Positions 8,043 to 55,352 of a stretch of DNA of 64,000 bases are shown here, in pieces (within the stretch, counting starts at the first letter, position 1; every line of letters starts with the position of its first letter). Below the pieces are notes generated by a model. That model ran no database searches, was not told where the DNA came from, and was given only the letters and a program-made list of their open reading frames with translations. This stretch comes from a virus. Lineage: Duplodnaviria; Heunggongvirae; Uroviricota; Caudoviricetes. The position numbers and the translations under genes are program-made. Location: the IMG/VR virus record IMGVR_UViG_3300033070_001565. One strand, given 5' to 3'.

Positions 8043-8073
8043 AAATAAGTGTTTCCATGGAGATAATGTAAGT

Positions 8074-9129: not shown

Positions 9130-9145
9130 GATATGATGCGAGTAC

Positions 9146-11209: not shown

Positions 11210-11979
11210 CTGCAACACTGAAATTGCTCGATGCATGCTCAAAAGTTGATGGGAAGAAACCGACGGTGATTGTCTCATCCTCTTCTGCTGTGTATGGGAA
11301 TGCACAGTCCGGTGAGCTTGGAGAGGATGGTCCAGTGGGCCCCATTTCACTCTATGGTCACCAGAAACTTACAGTTGAAGGGTATTGCCGTCTCTTTACA
11401 CAAACTCATGGAGTACCAACCGTGTGTCTCCGGTACTTCAATGTGTACGGATCAGGGCAACTTGCAAGAGGACCGTACACGACGGTAATGGCAGCGTGGG
11501 TCGATGCCCATGTAAGAGGTGAGCAGCTCAGGTGGGATGGCGATGGTGAACAGAGACGAGATTACGTGAATGTTGATGATGTCATCAACGCAAACATTCT
11601 CGCTGCAAAGAATCCCACCGGTAAGGTGTACAATGTTGGTACGGGATTTGATTACTCAAATTCTCAGCTGAGAGCAATGCTTGGTGATCTCGGCGTGAGA
11701 TTCGATAACGTCCGCATGGCTCCTGCAAGGATTGGTGACCCAGCAAAGACATGTGCAAATATCGACAGGATAGGTAATGATCTTGGCTGGAGGCCTCTGA
11801 TTCTCCTCAAAGAGGGTCTGAGAAATATGACAGTGATGGCTCTCATGAATAAAAGCCCAAAGAAAGAAGTGTTAAATGGAAGTAACAGGACGAAACTTTA
11901 CAGAAGTTTATGGCAAGCTGGCGAATGCTCTCATCAAATATCGTTACTTGCCCTCTCCAAGGGGATCCGAATCCCGTGA
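10924..11979 (+). CDS. NAD-dependent epimerase/dehydratase (second copy)
   Basis: MQNVLVTGGYGFIGS Rossmann motif, a YGHQK YxxxK motif, and a C-terminal GLRNMT region. Confidence 0.75.
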   Translation: MQNVLVTGGYGFIGSRMCRFLSQNGIQYDIADDMSFALYKPKSDHSSSINFGSCDSPALLARIASGYYDTIFHFAAWGRVGMCTSQPIESHASNVTATLKLLDACSKVDGKKPTVIVSSSSAVYGNAQSGELGEDGPVGPISLYGHQKLTVEGYCRLFTQTHGVPTVCLRYFNVYGSGQLARGPYTTVMAAWVDAHVRGEQLRWDGDGEQRRDYVNVDDVINANILAAKNPTGKVYNVGTGFDYSNSQLRAMLGDLGVRFDNVRMAPARIGDPAKTCANIDRIGNDLGWRPLILLKEGLRNMTVMALMNKSPKKEVLNGSNRTKLYRSLWQAGECSHQISLLALSKGIRIP

Positions 11980-12886
11980 GCTGCTGGGGGTTAATTTCGA
12001 GATCGAAGACCCGCTTGATCGTCTCCCAAGAATCCAGTCAAGGAATTTCAATCTTGCGTACTGTATTGCAGAGATTATCTGGTACCTCTCTGGTTCCAAC
12101 TCTGTCAAATGGATTGCACGGTACTCTCCATTCTGGCTCGGCGTGTCAGATGATGGTGTGACAGCGAATTCGGCTTATGGTAGCAGAATCTTCAGGCAGA
12201 ACGATGCTCTTGGATTCGATATCGTTCAATGGGAGACTGTAAAACAACATCTCATTGATGATCCATTTACACGCAGAGCAGTGATTCACATCAAAACTCC
12301 TGCAGATAATGATCCCTCGAGCAAGGACATTCCTTGCACTCTAGATCTTCAATTCATTTTGAGAGAGGGTCGTCTCAACATGTTTGTCAACATGCGTTCG
12401 AGCGATCTCATCTTTGGGATTGGAAACGACATTCCTGCATTCACATTCTTCCAAGAACTCATGGCAAATGAACTTGGAGTCGAAGTAGGGACGTACTCAC
12501 ACAAGAGCAACTCTCTGCACGTTTACCCGCGTCATTATGCTCTTGTGAATAGCATGGTGAACGAGCTCGATGCTGAGATTCCAACGTTCGTAAGAATGCC
12601 TAAATTGCCTCGAGGCGATGTTCCCATTGTCGATCTTGTGAAGGCTGCAGACGGTCTTGAGAGGAGAGATATCTCTCCCGATGAAGTGAAGGCGATCGTC
12701 GATTATTTCTCGATACTACCGTACTTCAGAGATTGGGTTTCAATCCTTGCTCTGCGGACAATCAAGAGCAGACTTAACAATCTGTCATTCGTGCTTGGCG
12801 CATATGAAATGAGAGCTGATTTTCTGAGTCTCCAGGAAGATCTCATCAAGAGTCTCCATACCGCTTACAGGTGGTATTATGCTTGA
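11876..12886 (+). CDS. thymidylate synthase-fold pyrimidine (hydroxy)methylase (ThyA/dNMP hydroxymethylase family)
   Basis: DIPCTLDLQFIL (catalytic Cys) is followed by MRSSDLIFGIGNDIPAF and SLHVY, matching the ThyA core order. His is absent after the Cys (PCT, not PCH). Confidence 0.6.
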   Translation: MEVTGRNFTEVYGKLANALIKYRYLPSPRGSESRELLGVNFEIEDPLDRLPRIQSRNFNLAYCIAEIIWYLSGSNSVKWIARYSPFWLGVSDDGVTANSAYGSRIFRQNDALGFDIVQWETVKQHLIDDPFTRRAVIHIKTPADNDPSSKDIPCTLDLQFILREGRLNMFVNMRSSDLIFGIGNDIPAFTFFQELMANELGVEVGTYSHKSNSLHVYPRHYALVNSMVNELDAEIPTFVRMPKLPRGDVPIVDLVKAADGLERRDISPDEVKAIVDYFSILPYFRDWVSILALRTIKSRLNNLSFVLGAYEMRADFLSLQEDLIKSLHTAYRWYYA

Positions 12887-13331
12887 TCGTCCGGACTGGG
12901 ACAGCGTGTGGATGCATATGGCACAGACAATTGCTCTGAGGGCCTACGATGAGAAGCTGAAGGTGGGATCCGTAATCGTCTCTGACGATAACACACGGGT
13001 TCTTGCGATCGGGTACAATGGAAATTACAAAGGTGGTCCAAATACCCGAGATTCGTTGGAGCCCGGTCAGAGTGGAATGCTCCACAGCGAGCTAAATGCT
13101 CTGTTGAAACTGAACTATCACGATCCAGTTCGCAAGAAGTTGTATGTGACTTCATCTCCGTGCAAGGACTGTGCAAAATGTATCATACAATCAGCGATTG
13201 ATGAAGTGATATTCTTGAATGTCTTTGCACGAGATCCGAGCGGAATTAGCTTGCTTAGTTCGAACGGGATTAAAGTTAGACAACTGGTGACTACTTACTT
13301 GAGTGATCCTGAACAGAAAGAAGCTCATTGA
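12879..13331 (+). CDS. dCMP deaminase (cytidine/deoxycytidylate deaminase zinc-binding)
   Basis: HSELNAL (HxE) and SPCKDCAKC (PCxxC) motifs. Confidence 0.8.
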   Translation: MLDRPDWDSVWMHMAQTIALRAYDEKLKVGSVIVSDDNTRVLAIGYNGNYKGGPNTRDSLEPGQSGMLHSELNALLKLNYHDPVRKKLYVTSSPCKDCAKCIIQSAIDEVIFLNVFARDPSGISLLSSNGIKVRQLVTTYLSDPEQKEAH

Positions 13332-13560
13332 GGGCATACACACTGCGTACGTTAGCTCAAGGGGGAAACTGCTCGAAGCTCTGTCACTTCAGTCTGACAC
13401 TGCCAAGATTGCTCCAGGCTTGAAAGTATCGCACGAGAGTTCAGGTCTCAGATACGATGTAGTAATCGTCGGATCTGAGGGCGTGAAACTGCGCGCTCCC
13501 GATGGTGGAGAGTTCGTTGTGAGACGTCAAGATTTTGAAAGGGAGTACTCAATTGGCTGA
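13303..13560 (+). CDS. hypothetical protein
   Basis: ORF of 85 aa. Confidence 0.3.
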   Translation: MILNRKKLIEGIHTAYVSSRGKLLEALSLQSDTAKIAPGLKVSHESSGLRYDVVIVGSEGVKLRAPDGGEFVVRRQDFEREYSIG

Positions 13561-14245
13561 TATTAGAGACGTGATAGACATTGAGGAAGTGCTCAGAGAA
13601 GCGGGAGTACCTGTAAAGTCTCGTTCTAAGATTATTACAGAGGCAACTGTTGCGCAGCCGAAGAAATTTCGTGTTGCTAGCGAGTCTGTATCTCAGAATA
13701 CAAAAGACGAGCACGCAGAGCTCTATGAAATGTACGTAAACACGTACAACAAGCTTTCGATCGAACTCGACTCTGAGAAGTCAACAGGCATCAGAAAACG
13801 CGAGTTGAAAATCGATGAGACTTATAACAGAAACGGAATCTACCTCCACGAGCTGTATTTCGCGAATTCGTTTGACGTAAAGTCACAGATATTCGCAGAT
13901 ATGCTATGCTGCGTACGATTTGAGCGTGATTGGGGGAATTTCGACGCATGGCAGAGAGATTTCTTCTCTTGTGCAATGTCTGCGAGAGAGGGCTGGGCAT
14001 GCACTGGATACGGGTTGTGGGAGAAGAAGTACGTAAACTTCTTCATTGATGGTCACGATGCTCATGTTCCGCTAGGCATCATTCCCGTCCTTGTAATCGA
14101 CATGTGGACTCACGCGTCAAAGGATTATGGGAATAACAAGAAAGAGTACTTGACATCACAGCTCAAGGAAATTAATTGGGACGTTGTCGAAGAGCGTGTT
14201 CAAAAATGTGAAAAATTCGAGATCGCATTATGTCATACACTCTAA
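13535..14245 (+). CDS. Fe/Mn superoxide dismutase-like protein (start TTG or GTG, uncertain)
   Basis: DEHAELYEMYVNTYNKL, GIYLHELYFANSF and IDMWTHASKDYGNNKKEYL align with SOD ligand motifs (HHxKHH, HxxFW, DVWEHAYY), with partial ligand conservation. Confidence 0.45.
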   Translation: MKGSTQLADIRDVIDIEEVLREAGVPVKSRSKIITEATVAQPKKFRVASESVSQNTKDEHAELYEMYVNTYNKLSIELDSEKSTGIRKRELKIDETYNRNGIYLHELYFANSFDVKSQIFADMLCCVRFERDWGNFDAWQRDFFSCAMSAREGWACTGYGLWEKKYVNFFIDGHDAHVPLGIIPVLVIDMWTHASKDYGNNKKEYLTSQLKEINWDVVEERVQKCEKFEIALCHTL

Positions 14246-17157: not shown

Positions 17158-17895
17158 ATGATCGTTTCAATCGCTCAGACGCAGCCAATCTCAGACCAGA
17201 GCAAATCAGTTGGTGATGGCTGCAGACTCGTGATTGAGGCTGCGAGAAAAGGAGCTCAGTCAGTTTTTCTGCCTGAGCTTTCGTTCATTTACCGTTTGCC
17301 AACGAACAGACGAGAGGCGGCGGTACTCGCTCACACGAATGAGAGTCTTCCATTCTCGACAATGGCACTTGCATGCACCGGAAAGTGTTATGTTGGATTT
17401 GGATACGTTGGTCTTGAATCGGGCGAACTTTACAATGCTTACAGTATTCTCGACCCTCATGGAAAAATTATCAAAACTTGGAAAGTTGCTGATCTCAAGG
17501 GTCTCGAAGCAAATTGGTGTTCTGTGCCCGTAGTATCGCCAGAGAATGATACTGTGATAATACCAGGGTTGGGCAGGGTTGGATGTCTGATATCAGGACT
17601 GTCAAGAAAAGTCAGATATCAGGATGGTAGTGTTGACACACTTCTGGTGCCAACAAGGGAACGTCACACTGACGCTTGGCCACCAAAGGCTCAATATCTC
17701 TCAAACCTCTTTGATTGCAATCTTATCTATGCGAATATTGTTGATCCTGTCTGCAATGGAGGATCATACGTTAGTAACAGAATGGGCCAGACACAATCAT
17801 ACGGATCGTCTTTTAGCTCAGAAGCGCTAGTCGGAGCAATCATTGAAACATTACACATTCGAGCAATTCAAAAAAGATTCTTCAGAACCGATTGA
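17158..17895 (+). CDS. carbon-nitrogen hydrolase (nitrilase superfamily)-like
   Basis: E-K-C triad candidates in VFLPELSF, GKIIKTWKV and GRVGCLISG, in the canonical order. Confidence 0.45.
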   Translation: MIVSIAQTQPISDQSKSVGDGCRLVIEAARKGAQSVFLPELSFIYRLPTNRREAAVLAHTNESLPFSTMALACTGKCYVGFGYVGLESGELYNAYSILDPHGKIIKTWKVADLKGLEANWCSVPVVSPENDTVIIPGLGRVGCLISGLSRKVRYQDGSVDTLLVPTRERHTDAWPPKAQYLSNLFDCNLIYANIVDPVCNGGSYVSNRMGQTQSYGSSFSSEALVGAIIETLHIRAIQKRFFRTD

Positions 17896-19201: not shown

Positions 19202-20383
19202 ATGGGCGGCGCAGCTGGGCACCTCAGTCATGTTGTTGAAGACTATTCTCTAACTTTTTCGCAGGTGTACCAACTGTGCTCGGGAGTTGGGAGGGGAATT
19301 CTTGAGGATGTTAGCGAAAAAATCGACGGAATGAACATCGTGTACACTGTATCAGACAGTGGACAGATTCGCTGTGCAAGGAATGGTGGAGATATCGCTC
19401 GCGGTGGAATGACCGCAGATGAGCTAGCTGCCAAGTTTTCTGGTAGAGGAAATCTTTCGATTGCTTTTAACGAAGGATTTCAGACTCTTTCAGATGTTTG
19501 CTCCGATCTTTCACCTGAGATTATCGATACAGTCTTTCTTGGTGGTAAGAGGTGGTATTCTGCAGAAATCGTATATTCGAATAATCCGAATGTGATCAAT
19601 TACGATGGAAATCACATCGTGTTTCACAGGAGTCCCATTTTCGAATTCAATCCCGAAACAGGTAAAACAGCTCCTGCAGCCGACTCTGCGTGGGCAGATA
19701 AGATTAATCAGCTAGCAAGGAGGTTCGAACAAAAGAAAACATCTACAGGCTGGCATGTGCACTCTGCGCTGAAAACATCACTAAAAGCGATGGCCGATGA
19801 ATCTTCTCTAAATGCTCTTAAGAGCACTCTCAATGAGATGGCTTCTTCTGTTGGAAAGACAGAATCGATTACTCTCGGAGAGTACGTACAGATCTCGCTT
19901 ACTGATATTGTAAAAGGTCGTCTCGGAGATGCAGCGCTGGAGCAGATCGTAAAACGTATGATGGAGATTCCAGGGTGTCTTACGCTGACTCAGATCAAGA
20001 AACTCATCCCTCCAGAAGCATACACGCAAACGAAGGCTCTTGTCGAATCTTCTCCAAAACTCATCAAATCGATTCTAAGACCGCTCGAAATTGCGATTCA
20101 CAAATTCTCTGTTGATCTCCTTAGAGGTATGGGATCCGTCCTCGTAAAGGATCACCGTCAAGAAGTAGAGCGGCTCAGAATGGCCGTTTCTTTCGCTGTC
20201 GATTCAGTAAAAGACAGAATGAATGACAGCATCAAAACTCAGCTTGAAAAGCTTGGTGACATCTCGAACATCTCGTCATCAATGGAGGGCATTGTGGTAA
20301 TGTTCGAGGGTAACGCTTACAAGTTCACAGGAGCATTTGCTCCCGTTAATCAAATTCTAGGAATGGGCCGCTATGCCAAGTGA
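19202..20383 (+). CDS. hypothetical protein (possible nucleotidyltransferase, KxDG-like motif)
   Basis: SEKIDGMNIVY resembles ligase motif I. This is a weak signal. Confidence 0.4.
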   Translation: MGGAAGHLSHVVEDYSLTFSQVYQLCSGVGRGILEDVSEKIDGMNIVYTVSDSGQIRCARNGGDIARGGMTADELAAKFSGRGNLSIAFNEGFQTLSDVCSDLSPEIIDTVFLGGKRWYSAEIVYSNNPNVINYDGNHIVFHRSPIFEFNPETGKTAPAADSAWADKINQLARRFEQKKTSTGWHVHSALKTSLKAMADESSLNALKSTLNEMASSVGKTESITLGEYVQISLTDIVKGRLGDAALEQIVKRMMEIPGCLTLTQIKKLIPPEAYTQTKALVESSPKLIKSILRPLEIAIHKFSVDLLRGMGSVLVKDHRQEVERLRMAVSFAVDSVKDRMNDSIKTQLEKLGDISNISSSMEGIVVMFEGNAYKFTGAFAPVNQILGMGRYAK

Positions 20384-21980
20384 TCAATCGATTCTTTCAA
20401 AAGTACAAGCAAATCAAAAATCTGCACAAACGAATCTTGCTCAAGCAACACAAGAGTACGTTACAGCGCTGATTTCGAGTCTCAATGCAAAACTTCGTAC
20501 AGCGTGGAAGTCGAAATACGATCGATGGTACAGTCAGAACGAAGCAAGTATCAAAGCTCTCAAATCAAATTCAAAATCAAAGAAACTAGTTGATACTGCT
20601 TCGATCAAACGTTCGCTCGATGCATCTTACCCAAAGCTTTATCAGATTCAGCCTCCTGGAGTCTCTGATCGATCGAAAGTTCCACTTAGCGGGGTACAGG
20701 AGAAAATCTATACTCCTGAGCTCTTTACATTCGACGGAATTCGTGTAATGGCGGGTCACATTCCTCCTGCGTTTTGGAGTGCGCCGGCAGTGGAATTTGG
20801 ACCGTCTGATGAAAAGTACGGCTCAGTTCTAAAATCTGATGAGATCAAGCCTTACACTCGTGCGTATCGTCGTAGCTTGGTAGATGTTAAACAGCAGTAT
20901 GATGCAGCACGTGCAGAGGTGCAGTCATTTGTAAAGTATACAAAATCTTCACTTTCAAAGTCTGCCGAAGTTTCACAGACATACGATGCGTCTGTTTACA
21001 TTGACGAGTTGAAATCGCTCGAGAAATATTCTTGGACTGATCCAAGACTTGCCGTAAATCAAGATGCATATGCCGATTACACTGATTTTATTGCAAGAAA
21101 TCCTTACAATCCCGCTCGAGCATCGTCTGGATCTACAGGGACCGGCCCAGGAGAGACTTGGCTCGGAAGACTGTTTGGTGGATCGCTTCAGGGCACGAAG
21201 CAATCTTTTGATCTTGTTCTGCCTACGACTGACGGTCGTAATGTTCGCTATGAAGTAAAGGCGATCGAAAAAGATTCTCGTTCAATCAGAGCTGGTGCTG
21301 CTCACGGCTTGAGAGCGTATCACAGCGTAAGAGAAAAATTGAACGACATATTCAATTCAATGAATGCTTTTTGTTCAATTATTGAGAAACACGAAAGCGC
21401 GTTTAAACTTCTTTCAACAATCAGGCTGCACAAGCTGTATTCAGATGTAAAGAACTTCTATGACGAAAGAAGAGAAAATATGGTGATGAATGGAAACATC
21501 ACAATAGAATCAATCAAGCAGCTTCGCGCAATATTGCATCAGGTTCTTTCAGTACGTTCGCAGATGAGTACTGTAGACTCAGATGTGGAAATTACGTACG
21601 GTGGTAAAACAGTCAAAGTTTCACCACAAAAGCTACGAAGAATTCTTGTTTTGCTTGCAGATGATGACGACGATGGATCATTCGAGTATAATCCAATTCA
21701 GCTTGCATTCGCTGCGATTGGATCATCAGAAGCATTTTCAAATCCTGATGGGTTCATAACCGAGATGATTGATTCTGTTGATATATCAACAGTATTTCCA
21801 GGAGTCGATGGAATCATCGTGGCATCTCCAGATGGATTTACAATCATTAACGCTAAAGATTTCAATTCGGCATTCGTTCTTGGAGGATTTAGAGAAGGCA
21901 GACCTGCATACAACTTTGTTCTATTAGCTTCTCAGAAGCTTCCAGTACGCCACCGGGTCAATACTTGGTGGCGTTCCTGA
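20373..21980 (+). CDS. hypothetical protein
   Basis: Product of 535 aa with an 11-nt overlap with the upstream gene. Confidence 0.45.
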   Translation: MPSDQSILSKVQANQKSAQTNLAQATQEYVTALISSLNAKLRTAWKSKYDRWYSQNEASIKALKSNSKSKKLVDTASIKRSLDASYPKLYQIQPPGVSDRSKVPLSGVQEKIYTPELFTFDGIRVMAGHIPPAFWSAPAVEFGPSDEKYGSVLKSDEIKPYTRAYRRSLVDVKQQYDAARAEVQSFVKYTKSSLSKSAEVSQTYDASVYIDELKSLEKYSWTDPRLAVNQDAYADYTDFIARNPYNPARASSGSTGTGPGETWLGRLFGGSLQGTKQSFDLVLPTTDGRNVRYEVKAIEKDSRSIRAGAAHGLRAYHSVREKLNDIFNSMNAFCSIIEKHESAFKLLSTIRLHKLYSDVKNFYDERRENMVMNGNITIESIKQLRAILHQVLSVRSQMSTVDSDVEITYGGKTVKVSPQKLRRILVLLADDDDDGSFEYNPIQLAFAAIGSSEAFSNPDGFITEMIDSVDISTVFPGVDGIIVASPDGFTIINAKDFNSAFVLGGFREGRPAYNFVLLASQKLPVRHRVNTWWRS

Positions 21981-22472
21981 TTTAAACGATTCAAAATCGT
22001 CATTCATCAGAGCTCTACGCATCTCAGTACCGGAGATTCCACCAGTTTCTTCCCTACTGATATCTTTCACTTCTATCATACCGTTTGAAAGCAGTTCACC
22101 ACCGTGTTTCTGTATGTATGCAGGTCTAAAACGATCGGATGCATCTGCGGGATCTGCATACAGCTTTATTGCCGGATGTCCAGCAGCATTCGCTGACTTG
22201 ATTTTTTCGTACGTTGCTGTCACTGGATTCGCTACGTAATGAACAGAAACATTGTGAGGTAGAGCTGGCAAAATGAGATTTTCCCAAGCACGTCTCATTT
22301 TTTCCCATGTCATTGGAAACTCTCCTGGCTTGACTCTGTTTCCTGTCGAGACATATACAATCACGCTCTCATTCTCCCGTGATGCAATTTCGATAATATG
22401 CTCGTGTCCCTTATGGAAGGGTTTCGCAGCCATTGGTATTATTCCGATTGAATCTTGTACGAATGATGACAT
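21924..22472 (-). CDS. nicotinamide/nicotinate mononucleotide adenylyltransferase-like (cytidylyltransferase fold)
   Basis: PMAAKPFHKGH (HxGH) and GGISGTEMRRAL (ISxT) motifs. The start is an internal Met of the longer track ORF. Confidence 0.55.
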   Translation of the reverse strand: MSSFVQDSIGIIPMAAKPFHKGHEHIIEIASRENESVIVYVSTGNRVKPGEFPMTWEKMRRAWENLILPALPHNVSVHYVANPVTATYEKIKSANAAGHPAIKLYADPADASDRFRPAYIQKHGGELLSNGMIEVKDISREETGGISGTEMRRALMNDDFESFKSGTPPSIDPVAYWKLLRS

Positions 22473-22490
22473 CTGTGATAACCTAATGGT

Positions 22491-23156
22491 ATGAAAACCA
22501 CTATTAAGTACATTGAAGAACACTGTGCCGGGTGCATTGTTCACAGAACTGGTGAAAATGGTACAGAGATCCTCATGATACAGCCTCAAGCAGGATCTGC
22601 ATGGGGACTTCCAAAAGGTCACATTGAAAGAAATGAGTCTTTTGAGACAGCCGCAATCCGAGAAACACGAGAGGAAACCGGTATAAAGGTAAAGATTAGC
22701 GGAACTGTACCGTTTCCGGCAGTGTTTCGAAACAGCAAATTGAAGAAAGAAGTATGGTTCTTTGTAGCAGAGCCCATTGATCCCAACGAAGCACTCGTTA
22801 ACTCTCACGAAACAGTGTGTGTTGCATGGTGGCCAATCTCAGCGCTTCCACCAATCCACGCATACCAACGCGGAGTTGTCGGGTGGTTCCTAGGGCAGCT
22901 CGATGCAAAAGAAATCCCTCATGCTCTTCCGATCGAAATCGAAAAGCAAATGCAAATTGCTGAAAATCTTTTTCCCCCTGACGTGAACTGGATGGAACTC
23001 AAGAAAGAAATCATGTTTCACAGTCCGATCCACGTGAGATGCTTCTTTTCGAGAAGAGATCCGAGAACAAAGAAGCAACGTATGAACTCTTTCGAGAAAT
23101 TGGTATCTGAGGGATGGAAAGCACGTACGGGAGAGTATCCCATATTCAGACCATAA
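22491..23156 (+). CDS. Nudix hydrolase
   Basis: Nudix box GLPKGHIERNESFETAAIRETREETGI. Confidence 0.8.
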   Translation: MKTTIKYIEEHCAGCIVHRTGENGTEILMIQPQAGSAWGLPKGHIERNESFETAAIRETREETGIKVKISGTVPFPAVFRNSKLKKEVWFFVAEPIDPNEALVNSHETVCVAWWPISALPPIHAYQRGVVGWFLGQLDAKEIPHALPIEIEKQMQIAENLFPPDVNWMELKKEIMFHSPIHVRCFFSRRDPRTKKQRMNSFEKLVSEGWKARTGEYPIFRP

Positions 23157-23166: not shown

Positions 23167-24156
23167 ATGCCATCTTTGATCGAACAATACGTAAAAGCCG
23201 TGATCGCTGAGGATAGCGTAGCGGCAGAGGCGGGTGTATCTGGCTACACAGCTGGAGGTGGTATGGGATATGGCGTACAGAGGCTAGGTGGGCCCTCTGT
23301 AGCCCAGATATTTCTCAAACCATTCGCCAATGCATTCAAAGTTGCGGCCTCTGAGGGTGGTCAGACGATCAGCAGAGTGATGTCTCTCATAAAAGCCCAG
23401 GTAGCGACTGTCATATCGAAAGATCTTGCTCTAGAGTACACAAAGATCTGGAAAGATCACGCAACAGCTGTACAGCAATTCAAGCAGAAATACGCGGAGG
23501 CATACAAAGATATCGATCGTGTTACGACAGGAAACGAAGATTTTCTTTTCGTTGCATTCATGCTCGAACCTGGCGCGATGCTTGCAAGTTACATTCTTCC
23601 AAAATCTCCAAAGGTAGGAGTATCAATCGCGAATTGGCTCTCGGGAGGATCTCTTGGGAAGCAATGGGAACGTGAGAAGAGAAATGTGCAGCAAGACATT
23701 GGTCATGCATCGTATCGTTCAAGGAGCGAAGAACTGTCGTTCTATGACTGGCTCAGAAAGAGAATGACGAGAGTATCAGACGTTCTCGATGACAGTCAGG
23801 TTGGATCTGAGATGGCGCACGATGCTCAGAGAATCATCAAAGAGCAAGCTCGAAGAATCAGAGAGATGGTCGTATCTGTCGCAGTTGCACAGACTCCACA
23901 AGATATCGTAAGGGCGCTGCATTCATCAAGACAGATCGATATGAGGGAGATCATCAAGACGCTTAGCGGAAAGATGAATCAGCAACAGATCGACGCTCAG
24001 ATGCTCCATGCAATGAAAGAATCTGTAAAAATGTACGTTCTCACTCAGATCAATACACACATCAAATCAGTTCGTGCAAGTGGAATGTCTGCAGACTCTT
24101 TGTATGTAAAGTCATATACGAAGCTATACCATGAGATTGAACAGGTGAAAATCTAA
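23167..24156 (+). CDS. hypothetical protein with YVKAVIAED N-terminal leader
   Basis: N-terminus is MPSLIEQYVKAVIAEDSV, the same leader class as the 8-paralogue family. Confidence 0.45.
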   Translation: MPSLIEQYVKAVIAEDSVAAEAGVSGYTAGGGMGYGVQRLGGPSVAQIFLKPFANAFKVAASEGGQTISRVMSLIKAQVATVISKDLALEYTKIWKDHATAVQQFKQKYAEAYKDIDRVTTGNEDFLFVAFMLEPGAMLASYILPKSPKVGVSIANWLSGGSLGKQWEREKRNVQQDIGHASYRSRSEELSFYDWLRKRMTRVSDVLDDSQVGSEMAHDAQRIIKEQARRIREMVVSVAVAQTPQDIVRALHSSRQIDMREIIKTLSGKMNQQQIDAQMLHAMKESVKMYVLTQINTHIKSVRASGMSADSLYVKSYTKLYHEIEQVKI

Positions 24157-25119: not shown

Positions 25120-25612
25120 GAAACAGCTGCTAGGACAGATAGCAGCTTTTTTGAATTATTCGAAGCCACTTCCTCCAGAGACTATCAAAGAACTCAATAT
25201 GTACCTCAAAAAGGGCTGGTACAGAGGAGTGTTGAAAACGCCTGATTCCAAAAAAGTGTACAGAGGAATTTATTTGCCATCTGATTCATTCAGACAGGCT
25301 TACAGGATTCCTCCGGACGTTTCTGAGGGAGTGATTACAAACAATCAGTGGTACACCGCTCCAAATGGTTGTTCGTCATGGACAACGAATAAAACCGTTG
25401 CATCAATCGGCGCGAAACCAAGACCATTTCGCCCAGCACCAGGTCTTGCTCAGGTAGTTCTGCATGCTTATACAGCACAGAATCAATTCAAGTTCGTCGT
25501 TTGCAGATCGGGTCTCTATAAGATTGCTGGTCTTGATTCGAACGATGAAAAATCAGAGGTCATTGGACTCGGTAGAATCGAAATCTTCAAAATAGAGTAC
25601 GAGATTGGCTGA
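25016..25612 (+). CDS. hypothetical protein (GTG start or later Met)
   Basis: Product of 198 aa, upstream of the paralogue array. Confidence 0.35.
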   Translation: MPKPPEAPDGAPLEKWAWAPQRSDGVPEEANTEHEKQLLGQIAAFLNYSKPLPPETIKELNMYLKKGWYRGVLKTPDSKKVYRGIYLPSDSFRQAYRIPPDVSEGVITNNQWYTAPNGCSSWTTNKTVASIGAKPRPFRPAPGLAQVVLHAYTAQNQFKFVVCRSGLYKIAGLDSNDEKSEVIGLGRIEIFKIEYEIG

Positions 25613-26226
25613 TGTTCGAATCATACGTTCGTTCAATCGTCGAAGCTGCAGTCAAACCAATGCAAGCTGCCGAAAATGGTCTCGCTCTGTGCAAGAAGCA
25701 AGGCAGCATTACTCTGTACGATCCTGCAAAGCTCCTGAGCGATCCCACTGGCTCTCTCCCAAATATCGGTCAGTCTTATTCAAAAATTGTGATGGCTCAC
25801 TTGAAGTACGTAACGAAATCAGCGGGAGGTGAGAAACTCAATCAAGTAAAATCTGCAGCAGCGAAACACGGATACGGGCCCGTGATCTATGACGCTCTGC
25901 TGAATACAGGGTGGACAATGCCAGACAGACTCTCTGTATCTCACGAGGCCCTACGCGTTTGGAACTATTACGCGAATAAACGCGGAGATGTTTCGATGAA
26001 GCCTCTGCCTCCAGCATTCTGTGTACCAGATGATGATGTGTACAATGACGAACAGTTGAAACTCGTAAACTCTGCGTACTTTGTACCAGATCTACAATCG
26101 GGTTACTCTGAACTGATCGATGCGCACGAGGAATTTGTACGCGCTCTCCGTCCGTATCACACAGCAAATTCTGTCGAAACGTACCTGTCAAAGGCAGGAG
26201 ATCTTCTATTCGGTGAGCTGTACTGA
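25612..26226 (+). CDS. tandem paralogue 1 of 8 (YVRSIVEAAV leader; GYGPxxYD / PDRxSVS / RVWxYY core)
   Basis: MFESYVRSIVEAAV...HGYGPVIYD...PDRLSVSHEALRVWNYY. Confidence 0.6.
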   Translation: MFESYVRSIVEAAVKPMQAAENGLALCKKQGSITLYDPAKLLSDPTGSLPNIGQSYSKIVMAHLKYVTKSAGGEKLNQVKSAAAKHGYGPVIYDALLNTGWTMPDRLSVSHEALRVWNYYANKRGDVSMKPLPPAFCVPDDDVYNDEQLKLVNSAYFVPDLQSGYSELIDAHEEFVRALRPYHTANSVETYLSKAGDLLFGELY

Positions 26227-26846
26227 TGATCAACACTTATGTAAAGAGGATCGTAGAAGCAGCTGTACAACCCTCTCGTGCGCTTTCGGAGGGTCTCGCT
26301 CTTTGCTTCTCTCAACCACTTGATATTATCGTGCTGTACAAACCATCCGTGTTTGGAAATCCGGATGAAGGATTGCTGAAGACTTCACACAAGGGAGTTG
26401 TCTTTGGATACCTCTCGTACAGAGATAGAAGCGTTGACGATTATCACATCAGAGAGGTAACGGCCTCAGCAGCAACTCATGGGTATGGTCCGATTCTGTA
26501 CGATACTCTCCTACACAGTGGCTGGGCGATACCTGATCGCGGAAGCGTTTCAAAAGCAGCTCTCAGAGTTTGGGAGTATTACGCAAAATCACGACCCGAA
26601 ACTGTGATCAAGAAGATTCCAGATCCACTCAGAGATACGTCAGACAACTTGCAGTTTGATGAAAGAAAAAATCATCTTCTCAACTCAATGTACTCTCTCC
26701 CAAGCATTGATCAGAGATATGACGATCTGCTCGCAGAACACGAGAAATTCGTTGAGTCAATGCGTCGTTACAGACAACAGATCGTAATAGAGAAGAAGCT
26801 CGACGATCTTGGACAAGACTTCTTTGCGGAGAAATACAGTGGTTGA
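26226..26846 (+). CDS. tandem paralogue 2 of 8
   Basis: MINTYVKRIVEAAV...HGYGPILYD...PDRGSVSKAALRVWEYY, joined by an ATGA overlap. Confidence 0.6.
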   Translation: MINTYVKRIVEAAVQPSRALSEGLALCFSQPLDIIVLYKPSVFGNPDEGLLKTSHKGVVFGYLSYRDRSVDDYHIREVTASAATHGYGPILYDTLLHSGWAIPDRGSVSKAALRVWEYYAKSRPETVIKKIPDPLRDTSDNLQFDERKNHLLNSMYSLPSIDQRYDDLLAEHEKFVESMRRYRQQIVIEKKLDDLGQDFFAEKYSG

Positions 26847-27459
26847 GAGGTATGTACGTGCAATTGTTGAGAAGGCCATTGTACCAGAGAAGGCTCTGCA
26901 ACATGGTCTGTCACTCCTAAAAGGAAAGGACTGTCTGGTCCTCTACAATGGGTGGGAGGCCACCAACAGGGCCCGGGCCTCGAAGGGAGGTATTCCACCT
27001 GCCAGTGTCATTCCCATCATTGGATTCTTGCAGTGGTACGACCGCCTGGGCACTCCGGCAGTGAGAGAGATCAAAGCTTCGTTTGCAGTACACGGATGCG
27101 GACCGCTTCTTTACGATATTGCAATGTCTGGTTGCGAGTGGATGATGGCTGACAGATTTTCAGTTTCTGCAGCTGCAGAGCGTGTTTGGTTGTATTACTA
27201 CTCAAAACGTAGCGATGTTGAGCACGCTCCTCTTCCAGAGAAATATCAGAAAGATCCCGAAGAACTTACTGAGCGGGAGAGAACAGTTCTCAATTCGATG
27301 TATAGAATCAAAGACAAGATCGACTCACACGAACTTGAAGCTGCTCACAGAGATCACTGTGAAGAAATCGCGCGGATTTCTGGTGAGGCAGGAATAAGAA
27401 AATTCGAGAGACAGATTGTCCTCGCTGGCGAACAAAAGTTTTCGGATGCATTCACATGA
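26839..27459 (+). CDS. tandem paralogue 3 of 8 (GTG start)
   Basis: VVERYVRAIVEKAIV...HGCGPLLYD...RVWLYYY. Confidence 0.5.
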   Translation: MVERYVRAIVEKAIVPEKALQHGLSLLKGKDCLVLYNGWEATNRARASKGGIPPASVIPIIGFLQWYDRLGTPAVREIKASFAVHGCGPLLYDIAMSGCEWMMADRFSVSAAAERVWLYYYSKRSDVEHAPLPEKYQKDPEELTERERTVLNSMYRIKDKIDSHELEAAHRDHCEEIARISGEAGIRKFERQIVLAGEQKFSDAFT

Positions 27460-28073
27460 TTATCAAAGAAGCAGCTAGCACAATATCAGACGCAATAGGC
27501 GATGGTCTGGCACTGTACGATTCAGATCCTGGTAACATCAGCGCGAGTATTATTCTGTACGATCCGGTCATCGCTAGACTGAGACCGACCGCAGAGTGTA
27601 TTACTGCTTACGTTGGCGTCGATAATGATCCATACATTGCTGGAAGATTTGGGATGGTTTCGTCATCAGTGGCAGAGTCGGGTTATGGACCTCTGACGTA
27701 CGATTACGCTCTCTCGAGAGGATTCAAAATCATCTCTGACAGATCGTCAGTCTCGTCATCTGCTCAGAGAGTATGGGTGTACTACTATCTCAAGCGTAGC
27801 GATGTCATGAAACAGCGAATCATTGCTCCTGACACGAAACCGGTAATAAAGGCTTGGACATATCCATCTTACAAGATTGAAGATGACGATACGAGAGATG
27901 CTCTCAATCATGCTTACTGGATTCCGAACGGAGAGGAAAAATTCGTAGATCTCCTCGAGGCCCATGATACGCGTTTGAACAGTATCAAAGGTCAGGCAGC
28001 CAAGAGACAGTTCCTGCAGTCTCTCCGTAGTGCGGCACTGTCGTTTTTCCACGCTAATTACAAGGACGAGTGA
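27456..28073 (+). CDS. tandem paralogue 4 of 8 (diverged leader)
   Basis: MIIKEAASTISDAIGDGLALYD...SGYGPLTYD...RVWVYYY. Confidence 0.55.
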   Translation: MIIKEAASTISDAIGDGLALYDSDPGNISASIILYDPVIARLRPTAECITAYVGVDNDPYIAGRFGMVSSSVAESGYGPLTYDYALSRGFKIISDRSSVSSSAQRVWVYYYLKRSDVMKQRIIAPDTKPVIKAWTYPSYKIEDDDTRDALNHAYWIPNGEEKFVDLLEAHDTRLNSIKGQAAKRQFLQSLRSAALSFFHANYKDE

Positions 28074-28732
28074 TGTCTCTCCAAGCGTATGTAAGAAAAA
28101 TTGTCGAGGCGGCGCTGACATCATCTGATGCAGAGAGTTCAGGTCTTGCCCTTTGCGTTGTTAACAGAGACGGTACGCTTGCGATACTTTACAACGTTAG
28201 TAAAATGAAAGACGCTCTTTGGCATCACAAGGGAAGAGACGTTGACGCAATTGTCGGGATGATTCACGTAACTTCGGCTGAGTATAACGTTCATGGACCG
28301 AGTTACGGTGGGCTTGAGGTTGTGGCAGCTGCGGCGGAGAAAGGTTACGGCCCACTACTTTACGATTTTGCACTGAGTTTGGGAAAACCGATTATGCCAG
28401 ATCGTGAGTCGGTTTCGAAAAAAGCTTCTGCAATATGGGATTACTTCTATTCAAAGAGACCAGATGTCAAGAAACTGAGGCTTGACAACAAGTATGATCC
28501 AAAAACGCCAGACCCGTATGATGATTCGTGGTATCACAAAGAGACTGGAAAGGAGAATCCACTAAATTTCGCATACGTTGGCGAGGGAAATCCTTGCACG
28601 TCACTGATTGCTGCTCATGATCGTCTCTGCGAAACATTCGAACGTCTCGGTGTTTGCAAGAAAGAAAACTTTGTCAACCTACTGAAGATTGTTGGAGACA
28701 GATACTTCATTGGGAGATATAGACACGGATGA
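28073..28732 (+). CDS. tandem paralogue 5 of 8
   Basis: MSLQAYVRKIVEAAL...KGYGPLLYDFALS...IWDYFY...LRLDNKYDPKTPDPYDDS. Confidence 0.6.
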   Translation: MSLQAYVRKIVEAALTSSDAESSGLALCVVNRDGTLAILYNVSKMKDALWHHKGRDVDAIVGMIHVTSAEYNVHGPSYGGLEVVAAAAEKGYGPLLYDFALSLGKPIMPDRESVSKKASAIWDYFYSKRPDVKKLRLDNKYDPKTPDPYDDSWYHKETGKENPLNFAYVGEGNPCTSLIAAHDRLCETFERLGVCKKENFVNLLKIVGDRYFIGRYRHG

Positions 28733-29478
28733 TCGCTGAACAGTACATCAAAAGTCTCGTCGAGGCTGCAGTGACAGCAGACGCTGCGCAGTCTGCAGGA
28801 ATGGCTCTCATGATCACTGCCACTGGTGACAAGATGGATATTGTCCTCTATGATCCAAAGAAATTCTTGAGATTTGCGCAAGAGAATCTTCAAGGGGAGG
28901 ACGCGCATTCTGATTCAGACTGTAGCGATTGCATCTATGGCCATGTTCAGATGAGACCTGTACCGCAGAGTTATGGACAGAGCTATGGAGCCTATGTCAT
29001 CAATACGACGTCGTCTCTCAAGGGATACGGTCCTCTCATGTACGATATTGCTCTTGGGCTGGGTCGACCCGTAATACCAGACCGTTCATCTGTTTCTCCC
29101 GCTGCGAAGAAGATCTGGACAGTTTACAAACTCAATCGTTCAGATGTGAAGAAGCTTCCACTGGATAACAAGGACGCTCCAAGAACGCCTGATCCAAAAG
29201 ACGATTCTGTCATTTATCCTGGCGATGACGAGCTCACGAATCCGCTCAACTTTGCGTACATCCGTCCGGGTTCGAACGCACAGTACTCCGGAATGCTCGA
29301 GAAGCACAGGAAAGTTGCGAGAATCGTGACGGCAAAGGTCCCAAGCATCACTGTGAAAGACGTTGAAGAGATGCTGAGACACGGTGGCGGAGAGTTCTTC
29401 TTCAGGAGATACGCAAGTGAAAACTTACGTGAAGCTCATTGTAGAGGCTGCAATGGGAGTCGACTCTGCAGCCTCTGA
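28729..29478 (+). CDS. tandem paralogue 6 of 8 (no stop at the family end, reads about 60 nt into the next copy)
   Basis: MIAEQYIKSLVEAAV...KGYGPLMYD...LPLDNKDAPRTPDPKDDS...FFFRRY, then an extension. Confidence 0.55.
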   Translation: MIAEQYIKSLVEAAVTADAAQSAGMALMITATGDKMDIVLYDPKKFLRFAQENLQGEDAHSDSDCSDCIYGHVQMRPVPQSYGQSYGAYVINTTSSLKGYGPLMYDIALGLGRPVIPDRSSVSPAAKKIWTVYKLNRSDVKKLPLDNKDAPRTPDPKDDSVIYPGDDELTNPLNFAYIRPGSNAQYSGMLEKHRKVARIVTAKVPSITVKDVEEMLRHGGGEFFFRRYASENLREAHCRGCNGSRLCSL

Positions 29479-30079
29479 GGGATACGCCCTCTATTCGAAC
29501 GACTATGGTCGAGGTCAGACAGCACTCCTGTACGATCCCGAATACGTGTGGAGAGTCTCGTCTTCTGGAAAGCTCCCACAACAATCCTCGGGACCCGTAG
29601 TTGCGTATATCAACACGCGGAAGAGAGAGAATATCAAGGGTCACATGTACGGAGCTCGCGCAATTGCGTCTGCAGCTGCTCGTAAGGGATGGGGACCCAT
29701 GCTGTACGATTTCATCATCTCTTCAGGAAAAGTCGCACCAGATCGTCTCTCTGTTTCATCTAGCGCAGAGTCTGTTTGGTCGTATTACAAAAACAAGCGT
29801 CCTGATGTAGAAAAAGAGAAGATAGACAATGTTCTCGCACCGAAGACACCGACACCAGTCGACGATGGCGAGGTCTATGATAAGGGAAGTGATGAGAATC
29901 CTCTCAATTACGTGTACTCAATGAAATCAGATATCGCGAGTCAGTACTCTCCGCTCATCAGATCTCACAGCGAATTTTGCGATAGGATGCAGCAGAAGAG
30001 AGGAATCTCACGAGATGATCTCGAAGCGTACCTCAAGAAGTGCGGAAGCATGTTCTTCATGAAGAAATACGAAGGATAA
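29417..30079 (+). CDS. tandem paralogue 7 of 8 (GTG start)
   Basis: VKTYVKLIVEAAMG...KGWGPMLYD...VWSYYKNKRPDV. Confidence 0.5.
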   Translation: MKTYVKLIVEAAMGVDSAASEGYALYSNDYGRGQTALLYDPEYVWRVSSSGKLPQQSSGPVVAYINTRKRENIKGHMYGARAIASAAARKGWGPMLYDFIISSGKVAPDRLSVSSSAESVWSYYKNKRPDVEKEKIDNVLAPKTPTPVDDGEVYDKGSDENPLNYVYSMKSDIASQYSPLIRSHSEFCDRMQQKRGISRDDLEAYLKKCGSMFFMKKYEG

Positions 30080-30080
30080 A

Positions 30081-30773
30081 ATGATCGGGTCTTATGTCAA
30101 ACGTCTCGTTGAAGCTGCACTCGGAATCGACTCTGCACTAGCTGCAGGTCTTGCACTCTGTGTAAATAAAGGTTCAGGTGGAGCTTACATTGTGCTTTAC
30201 GATGCAAAGGAGTACGTTAAACACGCTCTTGCGAATGCGAAACACATTGGCGAAATGACAGATCCCCGTACGGCTGAATGTGTGTACGGGTTTATCAGAA
30301 TGCATGTGGTCGATCCAAGCAACGGAGAGAGTTACGGTTCATACGAGATTGCGAACTCAGTTGCAAGGAAAGGGTACGGACCGTTCATGTACGATGTTGC
30401 AATGAGTCTTGGAAAACCCGTCATATCAGATCGCGGATCTGTTTCTCCAGATGCACAAAAAATTTGGAAATACTACAAAGATAACAGATCTGACGTGAAG
30501 AAGCTTCCGCTCGATAACAAATCTGCACCGAGAACACCAGAAACTTTTGATGACTCGATTGTATTTGACGCCGGAAAGGAATCTGAACTCACGAACCCTC
30601 TTAATTTTGCATATAAGAGTGGTGGAATCGATTTTTCAAAATTGACTCAGAGACACGAAAAAGTCTTGCAGCTGCTGAAAACGAAAATACCAGAACTGAC
30701 TCCTGACAGAGTAGAGTCAAGTCTTAATCATTTTGCTGAAGATTACTTCATCAAGAGATATCACGGAGTCTGA
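30081..30773 (+). CDS. tandem paralogue 8 of 8
   Basis: MIGSYVKRLVEAAL...KGYGPFMYD...LPLDNKSAPRTPETFDDS. Confidence 0.6.
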   Translation: MIGSYVKRLVEAALGIDSALAAGLALCVNKGSGGAYIVLYDAKEYVKHALANAKHIGEMTDPRTAECVYGFIRMHVVDPSNGESYGSYEIANSVARKGYGPFMYDVAMSLGKPVISDRGSVSPDAQKIWKYYKDNRSDVKKLPLDNKSAPRTPETFDDSIVFDAGKESELTNPLNFAYKSGGIDFSKLTQRHEKVLQLLKTKIPELTPDRVESSLNHFAEDYFIKRYHGV

Positions 30774-32597: not shown

Positions 32598-33139
32598 AAC
32601 TTGCTCCTCATCGGTACTGTTTTATTCTGCTTCTTTGGCATTACCGTCGTCTTTGCGGCGGGTTGCTTAATACGCTCCTGTACTGGAGCTCGCGATTTTA
32701 CGGGATCGGCTGGTGGTTGACCGGGACCGTGAGGCGTTTCAGGTACCGGTTTTTCCATGGCAGGGTGTGGCTCTTTTGTCTGAGTTGGCGTCGCCTCTGT
32801 CGAATCTTCTGCAGGGGCGTGATTCACTGCATGCGCCCTGTATGCTAGCGCGAATGCGTAGAGCGCATCATCAGCCGTTCCACCCAGCTTTTCAAATTCT
32901 GCAGTGTACTTTGCTATGAGCTTATCAATCTCTGCAGTCATCTTCTTCGCGGCATTCGAACGAGCTCGCGAGACATACTTGTTTTGCATGTCAACGTGCA
33001 GTCCTCGTACCATGTCTGACGCCGCACCGAGAAGCGCTCTGACATCGAATTCTTTGATGAGCTGAGCTCTCGCAGCTTCTCTTATGATCTGTTCGACACT
33101 CGGTTCGAGTTTGTGCATGTATTTATGTATATGACACAA
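32594..33139 (-). CDS. hypothetical protein
   Basis: Product of 181 aa with a 4-nt overlap with the downstream minus-strand gene. Confidence 0.4.
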   Translation of the reverse strand: MCHIHKYMHKLEPSVEQIIREAARAQLIKEFDVRALLGAASDMVRGLHVDMQNKYVSRARSNAAKKMTAEIDKLIAKYTAEFEKLGGTADDALYAFALAYRAHAVNHAPAEDSTEATPTQTKEPHPAMEKPVPETPHGPGQPPADPVKSRAPVQERIKQPAAKTTVMPKKQNKTVPMRSKL

Positions 33140-51728: not shown

Positions 51729-51776
51729 TTGATTCAAATCTATATTTGTTGTTGCGTGTTTTCAGCTAATTGATTT

Positions 51777-51977
51777 ATGAAGATCGAAAGGATACCAGTG
51801 AAGGGACCCCTGTCAAAGGGAACGCTCGCTGGTGTGAGAGCAGAGGCTGCCGGCAAGCCGTACGACAGATTCGGTGTTGTTCTCAGTGTAGAGAACGGCA
51901 GACTGTTTTTGATAACTGCAGCAGGACCAACGTGGTGGCCCTGGCGTATGTCCTACGTGGCTCTTGGCATGTCATAG
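51777..51977 (+). CDS. small ORF, possibly related to the microgene family
   Basis: ATG ORF of 66 aa. IPVKGPL...VVLSVENGRLFLI...WWPW resembles the family. Confidence 0.2.
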   Translation: MKIERIPVKGPLSKGTLAGVRAEAAGKPYDRFGVVLSVENGRLFLITAAGPTWWPWRMSYVALGMS

Positions 51978-52144
51978 TGCCACCGCGCGTACCTTCTGAT
52001 TGAACTAGCAGCCATCCATTTAGAAAATTCGTTGAAATGGGCGTCAATCCTACGAGTACGTTCGCAGACTGCAATTGCAATATACAAGTAATACGAATCG
52101 TCAAGACTGTCTGCAAAAAGAGTTCCCGGTGTTACGGCTTCCAC
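51953..52144 (-). CDS. microgene array member (MET-PG...WKP family), most downstream copy
   Basis: GTG-EAVTPGTLF. The junction GTGGAAGCCGTAA is shared with the upstream copy. Confidence 0.4.
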   Translation of the reverse strand: MEAVTPGTLFADSLDDSYYLYIAIAVCERTRRIDAHFNEFSKWMAASSIRRYARWHYDMPRAT

Positions 52145-52317: not shown

Positions 52318-52321
52318 AGGA

Positions 52322-53452: not shown

Positions 53453-53545
53453 CTGATGTTAGCTGTTTTACTGATGCAATGTCGTCATCAAGATCTACGT
53501 GCCAGCCTACGAGAATGTAAACATTTGCTACACCGTTATCGTGCG

Positions 53546-55349: not shown

Positions 55350-55352
55350 ATC

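Follow-up and report, generated by a model that had tools for sequence, protein, structure and literature searches.

Our analyses favor a nucleic-acid end-processing module over NAD+ recycling as the setting of a divergent nucleotidyltransferase–Nudix gene pair in an uncultured jumbo phage, since the transferase family travels, and is fused, with RNA-ligase-like and nuclease-like proteins. In the reading we favor, to which we give a probability of roughly 40% on the basis of sequence motifs and gene associations, the transferase would serve as the adenylyltransferase of a ligase- and nuclease-linked end-processing module, with the Nudix enzyme as an accessory pyrophosphohydrolase. The pair lies in a 64,000-nucleotide stretch of DNA (IMG/VR record IMGVR_UViG_3300033070_001565), all of which was analyzed and is referred to here as the window.

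A head-to-head transferase and Nudix gene pair

The transferase gene occupies positions 21924..22472 on the minus strand and encodes 182 aa. Its open reading frame as listed is longer (21924..22808, minus strand), with the best start at the ATG at 22470-22472, from which the protein begins MSSFVQDSIGIIPMAAKPFHKGHEH...; some gene callers begin at M14 instead, which cuts off part of the fold, since strand beta-1 (IGIIP) is conserved in the family alignment. A spacer of 18 nt (22473..22490) separates this start codon from that of a 221-aa Nudix-X fusion protein (22491..23156, plus strand). A promoter and terminator scan found none in or beside the spacer, and no sigma-70-like site within it. The same head-to-head layout recurs in relatives whose Nudix proteins are 76% and 31% identical to that of the window, so the pair is not a chance juxtaposition; in one locus (L004) the spacer measures 39 nt. 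The preliminary description had reported an HxGH/ISxT nucleotidyltransferase encoded divergently from a Nudix-box protein about 18 nt away, and motifs, models and coordinates all confirm this. At its 3' end the transferase gene runs 57 nt (21924-21980) into ORF B, which lies upstream on the plus strand and is not conserved at its tail.

The transferase is a HIGH-superfamily (HxGH) nucleotidyltransferase. It carries the motifs KPFHKGH (HxGH) and ISGTEMR (ISxT-type, SGT), has a Rossmann-like fold and passes the generic HIGH-domain model TIGR00125 (33.7 bits, cut-off 27.7), the only curated model that it passes; several HIGH-family Pfam models also match. An AlphaFold2 model built from 86 sequences reached a pLDDT of 94.4, compared with 45 for an unusable model from 3 sequences. 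Its best viral fold matches (BFVD) were multidomain 'cytidyltransferase-like' phage proteins and cyanophage cytitidyltransferases, annotated viral NMNATs appearing only at ranks 44-48.

The divergent gene encodes a member of the Nudix hydrolase superfamily. Its box has the form GX5EX7REUXEEXGU and is intact (G-HIERN-E-SFETAAI-RE-T-R-EE-T-G-I), and Pfam NUDIX (PF00293) matches residues 15-129 with E = 1.3e-16 (61.3 bits, cut-off 21.1). This Nudix domain (approximately aa 15-129, nt 22533-22877) is followed by a conserved C-terminal domain, X (approximately aa 150-221, nt 22938-23153), and three proteins (P0004-P0006) are orthologues over the full length of the fusion. Among solved structures, Ndx1 and NUDT2-type Ap6A/Ap4A hydrolases are nearest (E 2e-7 to 1e-5; Ndx1 2e-7, NUDT2 6e-7), followed by DIPP and Dcp2. 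An assignment as an ADP-ribose pyrophosphatase did not hold up: neither best match nor signature places the protein in that subfamily. The ADP-ribose pyrophosphatase structure 3o8s matches marginally (E = 0.007), the corresponding models TIGR00052 and NF008003 give E = 0.01-0.1, and the box reads LPKGH where NatV of Acidovorax phage ACP17 has the LPGG form instead.

A phage-specific transferase family and its partners

A word-indexed search returned just 3 close homologues of the transferase; an exhaustive profile search retrieved 437 family representatives (clusters at 50% identity), 329 of them with E <= 1e-10. Its family, a large 'cytitidyltransferase' group specific to phages (phrog_395-like), carries source annotations no more precise than 'cytidyltransferase-like' or 'citrate lyase synthetase'. 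The family as defined here includes the cyanomyovirus core 'cytitidyltransferase' that recurs in virions: S-SCSM1 ORF91 and S-SM2 SSM2_161 reciprocally match the family HMM (positions 4-189), at the high divergence expressed by ~24% identity.

Fusions were clustered from the extra regions of the 47 members longer than 300 aa among the best 150 of the 437 representatives. Thirteen such regions are homologous to ORF A of the window (E down to 1e-72), nine members carry a B-like N-terminal domain, and one cluster comprises 10 regions, of which the two scanned members (P0067 and P0091) match PF09414 RNA_ligase. Two further fusions contain DUF6267 and two a C-like region (P0050 and P0104), the domain order in P0050 being B-like, transferase, C-like. 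A transferase–ORF A fusion is also encoded by Microcystis phage Mel-JY01.

ORF A itself (19202..20383, plus strand, 393 aa) is a putative Rnl2-like ligase-like protein, as judged from its motifs (EKIDGMN, AEIVY, EGIVV and YKFTG) and from recurrent sub-threshold matches. K40, D42, G43 and N45 (EKxDGxN), E122, E362-G363 and K374 are invariant in the family (alignment A6). PF09414 is matched weakly and below threshold by 6 of the 15 family members (best E = 0.004) and RNA_lig_T4_1 by one, with no other family matched by more than two; hhalign of ORF A against the PF09414-type cluster and DUF6267 gave probabilities of just 3-12%. A PDB profile search with ORF A found no meaningful match, and a PHROGs search with family members nothing relevant. 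A separate, canonical Rnl2-like RNA ligase is encoded by the same phage at 50688-51737, and we count it against the module reading.

ORF B (20373..21980, plus strand, 535 aa) shows, on alignment, a PD-(D/E)xK-like pattern in its C-terminal half: GxGE and ExK are invariant in the family, and the D between them is retained in most rows. This nuclease-like motif is a pattern and thus putative; neither ORF B nor its family members had a Pfam match, and a PDB profile search gave nothing meaningful. In two loci (L004 and L018) ORF B and ORF A form one protein, and elsewhere ORF B is found fused to the transferase. ORF C (23167..24156, plus strand, 329 aa) follows X in all contexts.

These associations are also visible as synteny. 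ORF A, the transferase and ORF C lie within 6 kb of each other in the window and in L001, L004, L007, L009 and L018, and L017 has ORF A and the transferase. L008 and L019 carry a kinase-like ORF, the transferase, X and ORF C, with X as a separate ORF between ORF C and the transferase operon. The transferase gene is always head-to-head with X–C, and in this subclade a Nudix domain is fused ahead of X. What is conserved opposite the transferase is X plus C; the Nudix domain is an addition to X peculiar to this subclade. None of 50,697 phage records matched the 20-26 kb segment at the DNA level.

By its motifs, the transferase appears catalytically intact, and it would most likely use ATP to transfer AMP to a phosphate-bearing acceptor, rather than act as a NadM/NatV-type NMNAT. 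Together with the Rnl2-like ligase-like ORF A, ORF B with its PD-(D/E)xK-like motif, the small X and ORF C, it would make up a module that processes or joins nucleic-acid ends, probably of RNA, during infection. We infer that a 5'-5' pyrophosphate-linked adenylate is either product or substrate of the transferase, for example an App-N end, a cap-like donor or an ApnN compound, and that the Nudix domain may hydrolyze such 5'-5'-linked adenylates or by-products. To our knowledge, no NMNAT/PPAT-like HIGH transferase has yet been described that acts on a polynucleotide end. Distant cyanophage homologues of the transferase occur in virion proteomes (PMC9602691, PMC10665884), which could reflect a different role and speaks against the module reading.

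Competing readings of the pair

The preliminary description had taken the pair for an NAD+-recycling unit, in effect a NatV split into two genes: the transferase as an NMNAT and the Nudix protein as an ADP-ribose/NAD+ pyrophosphatase would, with a NadV elsewhere, rebuild NAD+ against an NAD+-depleting defense (NARP2-like). Phages with fused or paired NMNAT–Nudix proteins and NadV are established, and the separate HIGH transferase and Nudix genes are real. NMNATs are also the best matches of the transferase-family profile among solved structures (9x6f, E = 1.2e-6; MJ0541, E = 1e-5), NadM 2qjo tops the Foldseek matches (TM 0.66), phrog_3462 'NMNAT' matches residues 9-156 (1.5e-5), and the Nudix-box regions of the window protein and of ACP17 NatV, a genuine phage NatV, share 42% identity across 57 aa. 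However, the NMNAT matches are limited to the HxGH region (~40-50 residues), the ACP17 NatV matches the transferase-family HMM at positions 10-58 only, PPAT ties with NMNAT in the structural comparison, and phrog_395 'cytidyltransferase' outscores the NMNAT phrog (8.3e-9, residues 6-172). The transferase falls far below the cut-offs of every curated NMNAT or NadM model (NF002243, 19.1 bits against 127; TIGR01527, 17.4 against 181.2; PRK05379 models, 12-15 against 397-418), with alignments that span ~30-45 residues around HxGH. After strand beta-3 the family consensus reads NVxVxY..PV...Y, a segment presumably unlike the PIxDxxxNxxW segment of archaeal NMNATs. An identity as a NadM/NatV-type NMNAT is not supported.

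The NAD+ reading also lacks its partner enzyme in the DNA searched. No NAPRTase (NadV/Nampt) was found among the 56 window ORFs or the called genes of the ~10 kb upstream (L012), which include DnaB, RNR, ThyX, dUTPase and methylases and no NAD genes, nor in any related locus; tblastn with the ACP17 NadV against the window and the retrieved loci that were searched (L001-L019) gave no match at E <= 1. Downstream, the source contig yielded no sequence beyond the window. Of the estimated 255-kb genome ~74 kb were covered, and this limited coverage counts in favor of the NAD+ reading. A 687-aa ORF (9146-11209, weak AAA_28) was considered as a NadR-type NR kinase and rejected: it showed no NadR/RNK match in the PDB and generic P-loop kinase similarity only. 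In addition, only one subclade has a Nudix gene beside the transferase, while the conserved or fused partners are A, B, C and X. The preliminary interpretation is supported in part, and we regard NAD+ recycling as unlikely. With the PPAT model TIGR01510 the transferase reaches 12.7 bits, the cut-off being 103.

The transferase may instead activate a small molecule, converting a phosphorylated metabolite to an NDP- or ADP-linked donor in the manner of the Kennedy pathway (kinase, then transferase) for decoration of DNA, virion or host surface, with the Nudix enzyme trimming the pool. In L008 and L019 the place of ORF A, immediately before the transferase, is taken by a protein-kinase/APH-like ORF, which would fit such a role as well. 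Modification of DNA or sugars is also suggested by the gene content of the window, which includes NDP-sugar epimerase/dehydratases, a radical SAM enzyme, a dCMP deaminase and a ThyA-like enzyme. A search of the window for tRNA genes gave none. An APH/ChoK-like kinase and the 'cytidyltransferase' both occur repeatedly in cyanophage virion proteomes (PMC10665884). We hold this reading to be improbable, and think no better of the proposal that the two genes are unlinked, the Nudix protein being an independent housecleaning or RNA 5'-end enzyme (RppH-, NUDT2- or MutT-like) that sits beside the transferase by chance. The latter proposal draws on MutT1 as the best curated Nudix model and 'MutT/NUDIX hydrolase' as the best PHROG, on the transferases without an adjoining Nudix in L007-L009 and L017-L019, and on the second, separate Nudix gene of L004. 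Yet the Nudix domain is covalently joined to X, a module component that stands alone in L008 and L019, and both the fusion and the head-to-head layout persist at 31% identity.

There is a slim chance that the transferase, A, B, X(-Nudix) and C constitute a previously undescribed phage system built around an NMNAT/PPAT-like HIGH transferase that acts on polynucleotide ends. The transferase might then 5'-adenylylate or cap RNA or DNA, or give an AMP donor to a divergent Rnl2-like ligase; delivery from the virion would be possible, with the Nudix enzyme possibly a de-adenylase or decapping partner. Were this true, the long-orphan cyanophage core 'cytitidyltransferase' would gain a function.

Relation to known systems

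NAD+ salvage genes are now of interest as phage counter-defenses, and a 'split NatV' label for this pair would probably be a false positive in catalogues. The fusions and synteny provide a concrete lead instead, tying the family to Rnl2-like ligase-like domains, a domain with a PD-(D/E)xK-like motif and two orphan proteins. If the ligase link of the module reading holds, it would make a new step of RNA/DNA end processing in phages accessible to experiment and would explain a gene conserved in marine cyanophages and uncultured jumbo phages.

The cyanomyovirus 'cytitidyltransferase' or virion 'NMNAT-like' protein (T4-GC 190; S-SCSM1 ORF91, S-SM2 SSM2_161) aligns with the family profile along the entire domain (positions 4-188, 38.8 bits). 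It shares the HxGH and SGT-type motifs and the phage-specificity, and is among the best viral fold matches. It differs in being longer, at ~400 aa, with additional regions at both termini, and none of its neighbors is homologous to A, B or C; it has been found in virions (PMC9602691). NadM/NatV proteins (ACP17 ASD50455, PDB 2qjo and 2qjt; paired with NadV, NARP2) likewise combine a HIGH transferase with a Nudix domain. NatV, however, is a bifunctional fusion, adjoined by NadV in ACP17, whereas the window has two divergent genes with no adjacent NadV, and its Nudix domain carries the unrelated C-terminal X. Unlike CoaD/PPAT, the window transferase has no CoA-pathway context, and it remains far below the TIGR01510 cut-off. 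The NUDT2/Ndx1 Ap4A/Ap6A hydrolases (1vc8, 3u53, 1xsa, 3i7u) share the W-x-x-PKGH-x-E form of the box with the window Nudix, although identity is low and the window protein has the extra domain X. Compared with Rnl2-type RNA ligases (PF09414), ORF A keeps the motif order (EKxDGxN, an acidic motif III, EG(I/V)V and the motif V lysine) but has an insert of ~200 residues between motifs IIIa and IV and falls below every curated threshold. DUF6267 shows the same pattern (HxxHxED, KxDG, PNVI(T/N)Y, EGFV), and the transferase family has members fused to a PF09414 or a DUF6267 domain.

A divergent transferase and Nudix gene pair

The window, from an uncultured jumbo phage, is densely coded and nearly all on the plus strand, with genes for a DnaE-type polymerase (2984-6496), GroEL (40803-42413) and a DEAD/ResIII helicase (42663-44225). 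None of 50,697 phage records matched it at the DNA level; a 255.8-kb contig carries a relative whose proteins are 76-79% identical. As the preliminary description had reported, an HxGH/ISxT transferase is encoded divergently from a Nudix-box protein, and we found both genes, their motifs and an 18-nt gap between the two ATGs. The transferase gene (21924-22472), the lone minus-strand gene there, encodes 182 aa with KPFHKGH and ISGTEMR motifs; it is correctly begun at MSSFVQ, given the family-wide conservation of strand beta-1 (IGIIP). The Nudix gene (22491-23156, plus strand) encodes 221 aa with an intact Nudix box (Pfam NUDIX, E = 1.3e-16). The transferase and ORF B genes overlap convergently by 57 nt (21924-21980), in the non-conserved C-terminal tail of ORF B; in the related locus L004 they merely abut.

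Elsewhere, eight tandem paralogous ORFs (25612-30773; 204-249 aa, pairwise identity 28-47%), none with a Pfam match, form an array also present in the 255-kb relative, L001. About 50 small minus-strand ORFs of 60-100 aa, without Pfam matches, occupy 51700-64000, where GC skew flips sign; blocks of this kind are characteristic of the early or host-takeover genes of phages. It is bordered by a canonical Rnl2-like RNA ligase (50688-51737, minus strand; PF09414, E = 9e-13), separate from ORF A. Two NDP-sugar epimerase/dehydratases, a ThyA-like enzyme, a dCMP deaminase and, further on, a radical SAM/SPASM enzyme (8026-13331 and 44237-45004), with ThyX and dUTPase just upstream of the window, suggest DNA base or sugar hypermodification. 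Also encoded are a superoxide dismutase (13535-14245), a papain-like peptidase (33113-33922), an HhH-GPD glycosylase (34276-35148), a Band-7/SPFH protein (37212-38129) and a UvdE UV endonuclease (39882-40793); the repair and stress gene set is unusually rich for a phage.

Family and fold of the two enzymes

The only model passed by the transferase was the generic HIGH-domain TIGR00125 (33.7 bits, curated cut-off 27.7). The specific models scored well below theirs: 17-19 bits for NMNAT (127-181 required), 12-15 bits for NadM (397-418) and 12.7 bits for PPAT (103). A Pfam Citrate_ly_lig match covers just 34 residues, at HxGH. A word-indexed search returned three close homologues only, and an exhaustive profile search 437 cluster representatives (329 at E <= 1e-10), all metagenomic, whose sole labels are of the kind 'cytidyltransferase-like'. 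Using an AlphaFold2 model (86-sequence alignment, pLDDT 94.4), Foldseek matched NadM (2qjo, TM 0.66) as well as archaeal NMNAT and PPAT (TM 0.5-0.6). Among predicted viral structures, multidomain phage 'cytidyltransferase-like' proteins and cyanophage cytitidyltransferases matched best, and annotated viral NMNATs appeared at ranks 44-48 only. The transferase belongs to a phage-specific family, annotated before but uncharacterised. This family is distinct, about equally far from NMNAT and PPAT, and nearer to adenylyl- than to cytidylyltransferases.

For the Nudix domain, the top curated model was MutT1 (1.4e-8), followed by RppH, NadM and NudE (~1e-5), all aligned over the box region. The best solved-structure matches were Ndx1 (Ap6A hydrolase) and NUDT2-type Ap4A hydrolases (E 2e-7 to 1e-5), ahead of DIPP and Dcp2, and no subfamily could be assigned with confidence. 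For the proposal that this protein recycles ADP-ribose, no positive sign of an ADPRase was seen, and an ADP-ribose pyrophosphatase structure matched just marginally (E = 0.007).

Partners linked by fusion and synteny

Among the best 150 of the 437 representatives, 47 are multidomain. Their regions outside the transferase domain were excised and clustered for comparison with the window. The largest cluster (n=13) is homologous to ORF A (19202-20383, plus strand; E down to 1e-72), and an N-terminal cluster (n=9) is ORF B-like (20373-21980, plus strand). In representative P0050 the transferase domain is flanked by an ORF B-like N-terminus and a C-terminus like ORF C (23167-24156, plus strand), and P0104 has an ORF C-like tail. 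In another cluster (n=10) the scanned members, P0067 and P0091, match the RNA ligase family PF09414, which 5/47 multidomain proteins match at E <= 0.001; DUF6267 occurs in 2/47. From the sizes of the ORF A-like, PF09414-type and DUF6267 clusters, a ligase-type cluster domain thus lies beside the transferase in 25 of the 47.

Invariant residues of ORF A comprise EKxDGxN (K40, D42, G43, N45), E122, E362-G363 (EGIV) and K374, an arrangement that matches RNA-ligase motifs I, III, IV and V in both order and form; Rnl2-type enzymes typically have an asparagine following motif I. Sub-threshold PF09414 matches occur in 6/15 family members and RNA_lig_T4_1 in 1/15, other Pfam families recurring in at most two, and DUF6267 shares the pattern HxxHxED, KxDG, PNVI(T/N)Y, EGFV. 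Weighing these motifs and the recurrent PF09414 against weak profile-profile support from the ligase-type clusters and the lack of a PDB match, we infer with moderate strength that ORF A is ligase-like. In ORF B, GxGE and ExK do not vary and most alignment rows have a D in between, a putative PD-(D/E)xK-like pattern that database searches with ORF B did not back. ORF C and domain X are both orphans.

In a synteny tally made with HMMs across related loci, ORF A, the transferase and ORF C occur together in the window, L001, L004, L007, L009 and L018, with ORFs A and B forming a single polypeptide in L004 and L018. The transferase precedes ORF A in L017 and is fused to it in Microcystis phage Mel-JY01, and L008 and L019 have the order kinase-like ORF, transferase, X, ORF C. 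All these loci place the transferase gene head-to-head with the (X-)C operon, and therefore the conserved divergent partner is X-C, not the Nudix. Domain X, which extends the window Nudix protein by ~80 residues at its C-terminus, is a separate ORF in L008 and L019, and the Nudix domain is confined to the window subclade (L001-L006), fused N-terminally to X. This fusion still links the Nudix to the module.

The protein-kinase/APH-like ORF of L008 (5170-6000) and L019 (5178-5999) directly precedes the transferase homologue, with which it is translationally coupled, and ORF A is absent nearby; this order recalls the kinase and 'cytidyltransferase' pairs of cyanophage virion proteomes. Clade-wide, a conserved CN_hydrolase gene precedes the module by a few kb (window 17158-17895; L004 3338-4500; L018 10170-11305); in relatives the gene after it encodes a pterin-4a-carbinolamine dehydratase. 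In the distant relative L009, a protein with a NADAR domain, which is linked to NAD and ADP-ribose, is encoded ~600 nt from the transferase homologue (4892-5389), the sole NAD-related neighbour in any context examined. A 687-aa ORF considered as NadR was rejected, its weak AAA_28 match not being NadR-like.

Possible functions and comparison with known phage enzymes

The window encodes an intact Nudix and an intact HIGH transferase of a phage-specific family, with fusion and synteny links to A, B, C and X. In the mechanism that we propose, the transferase would draw on ATP to place a pyrophosphate-linked adenylate on an acceptor phosphate, a chemistry common to its nearest relatives, NMNAT, PPAT and FAD synthetase. 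It may act in concert with the ligase-like and nuclease-like proteins at nucleic-acid ends, probably RNA, and the Nudix could cleave 5'-5' adenylates, be they App-ends, ApnN by-products of ligase-type enzymes, or caps. We hold this whole model of end processing tentatively, at a probability of roughly 0.4.

A split NatV, with the transferase and Nudix serving NAD+ salvage, seems unlikely. The Nudix is 42% identical to that of the NatV of Acidovorax phage ACP17, over 57 residues of the box region only. Known phage NAD+ routes (NARP1, NARP2, NARP3) use NadM, NatV or NadR-type enzymes, and the transferase falls below the membership thresholds of all of these. No NAPRTase/NadV was found among the 56 window ORFs or in ~10 kb upstream, of a genome estimated at ~255 kb, and tblastn with ACP17 NadV gave no match in the window or any related locus. 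Small-molecule activation through a kinase and the transferase, which would draw on the gene order of L008 and L019, is similarly improbable. We also doubt that the Nudix is an unlinked housecleaning or RNA-end enzyme, since its fusion to X connects it to the module.

The two domains are of known kinds; the literature searched, which held no papers on DUF6267 or 'cytitidyltransferase', did not describe the module of five components or its Rosetta-stone links. The comparative surveys of phage NAD+ routes in that literature discuss HIGH transferases of the NadM and NadR types only. Our result corrects an attractive but unsupported NAD+ story and offers a concrete starting point for this orphan family of phage enzymes. 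Cyanophage homologues of the transferase are repeatedly found in virion proteomes, where 'NMNAT' is an annotation label only (PMC9602691, PMC10665884). Cyanophage S-SCSM1 ORF91 matches the transferase-family HMM over its full length (positions 4-188, 38.8 bits), whereas the NARP2-type NatV of ACP17, whose gene adjoins NadV, matches at positions 10-58 only (25 bits), a difference that, like the low ranks of the annotated viral NMNATs, speaks against the NMNAT-like identity first proposed for the transferase.
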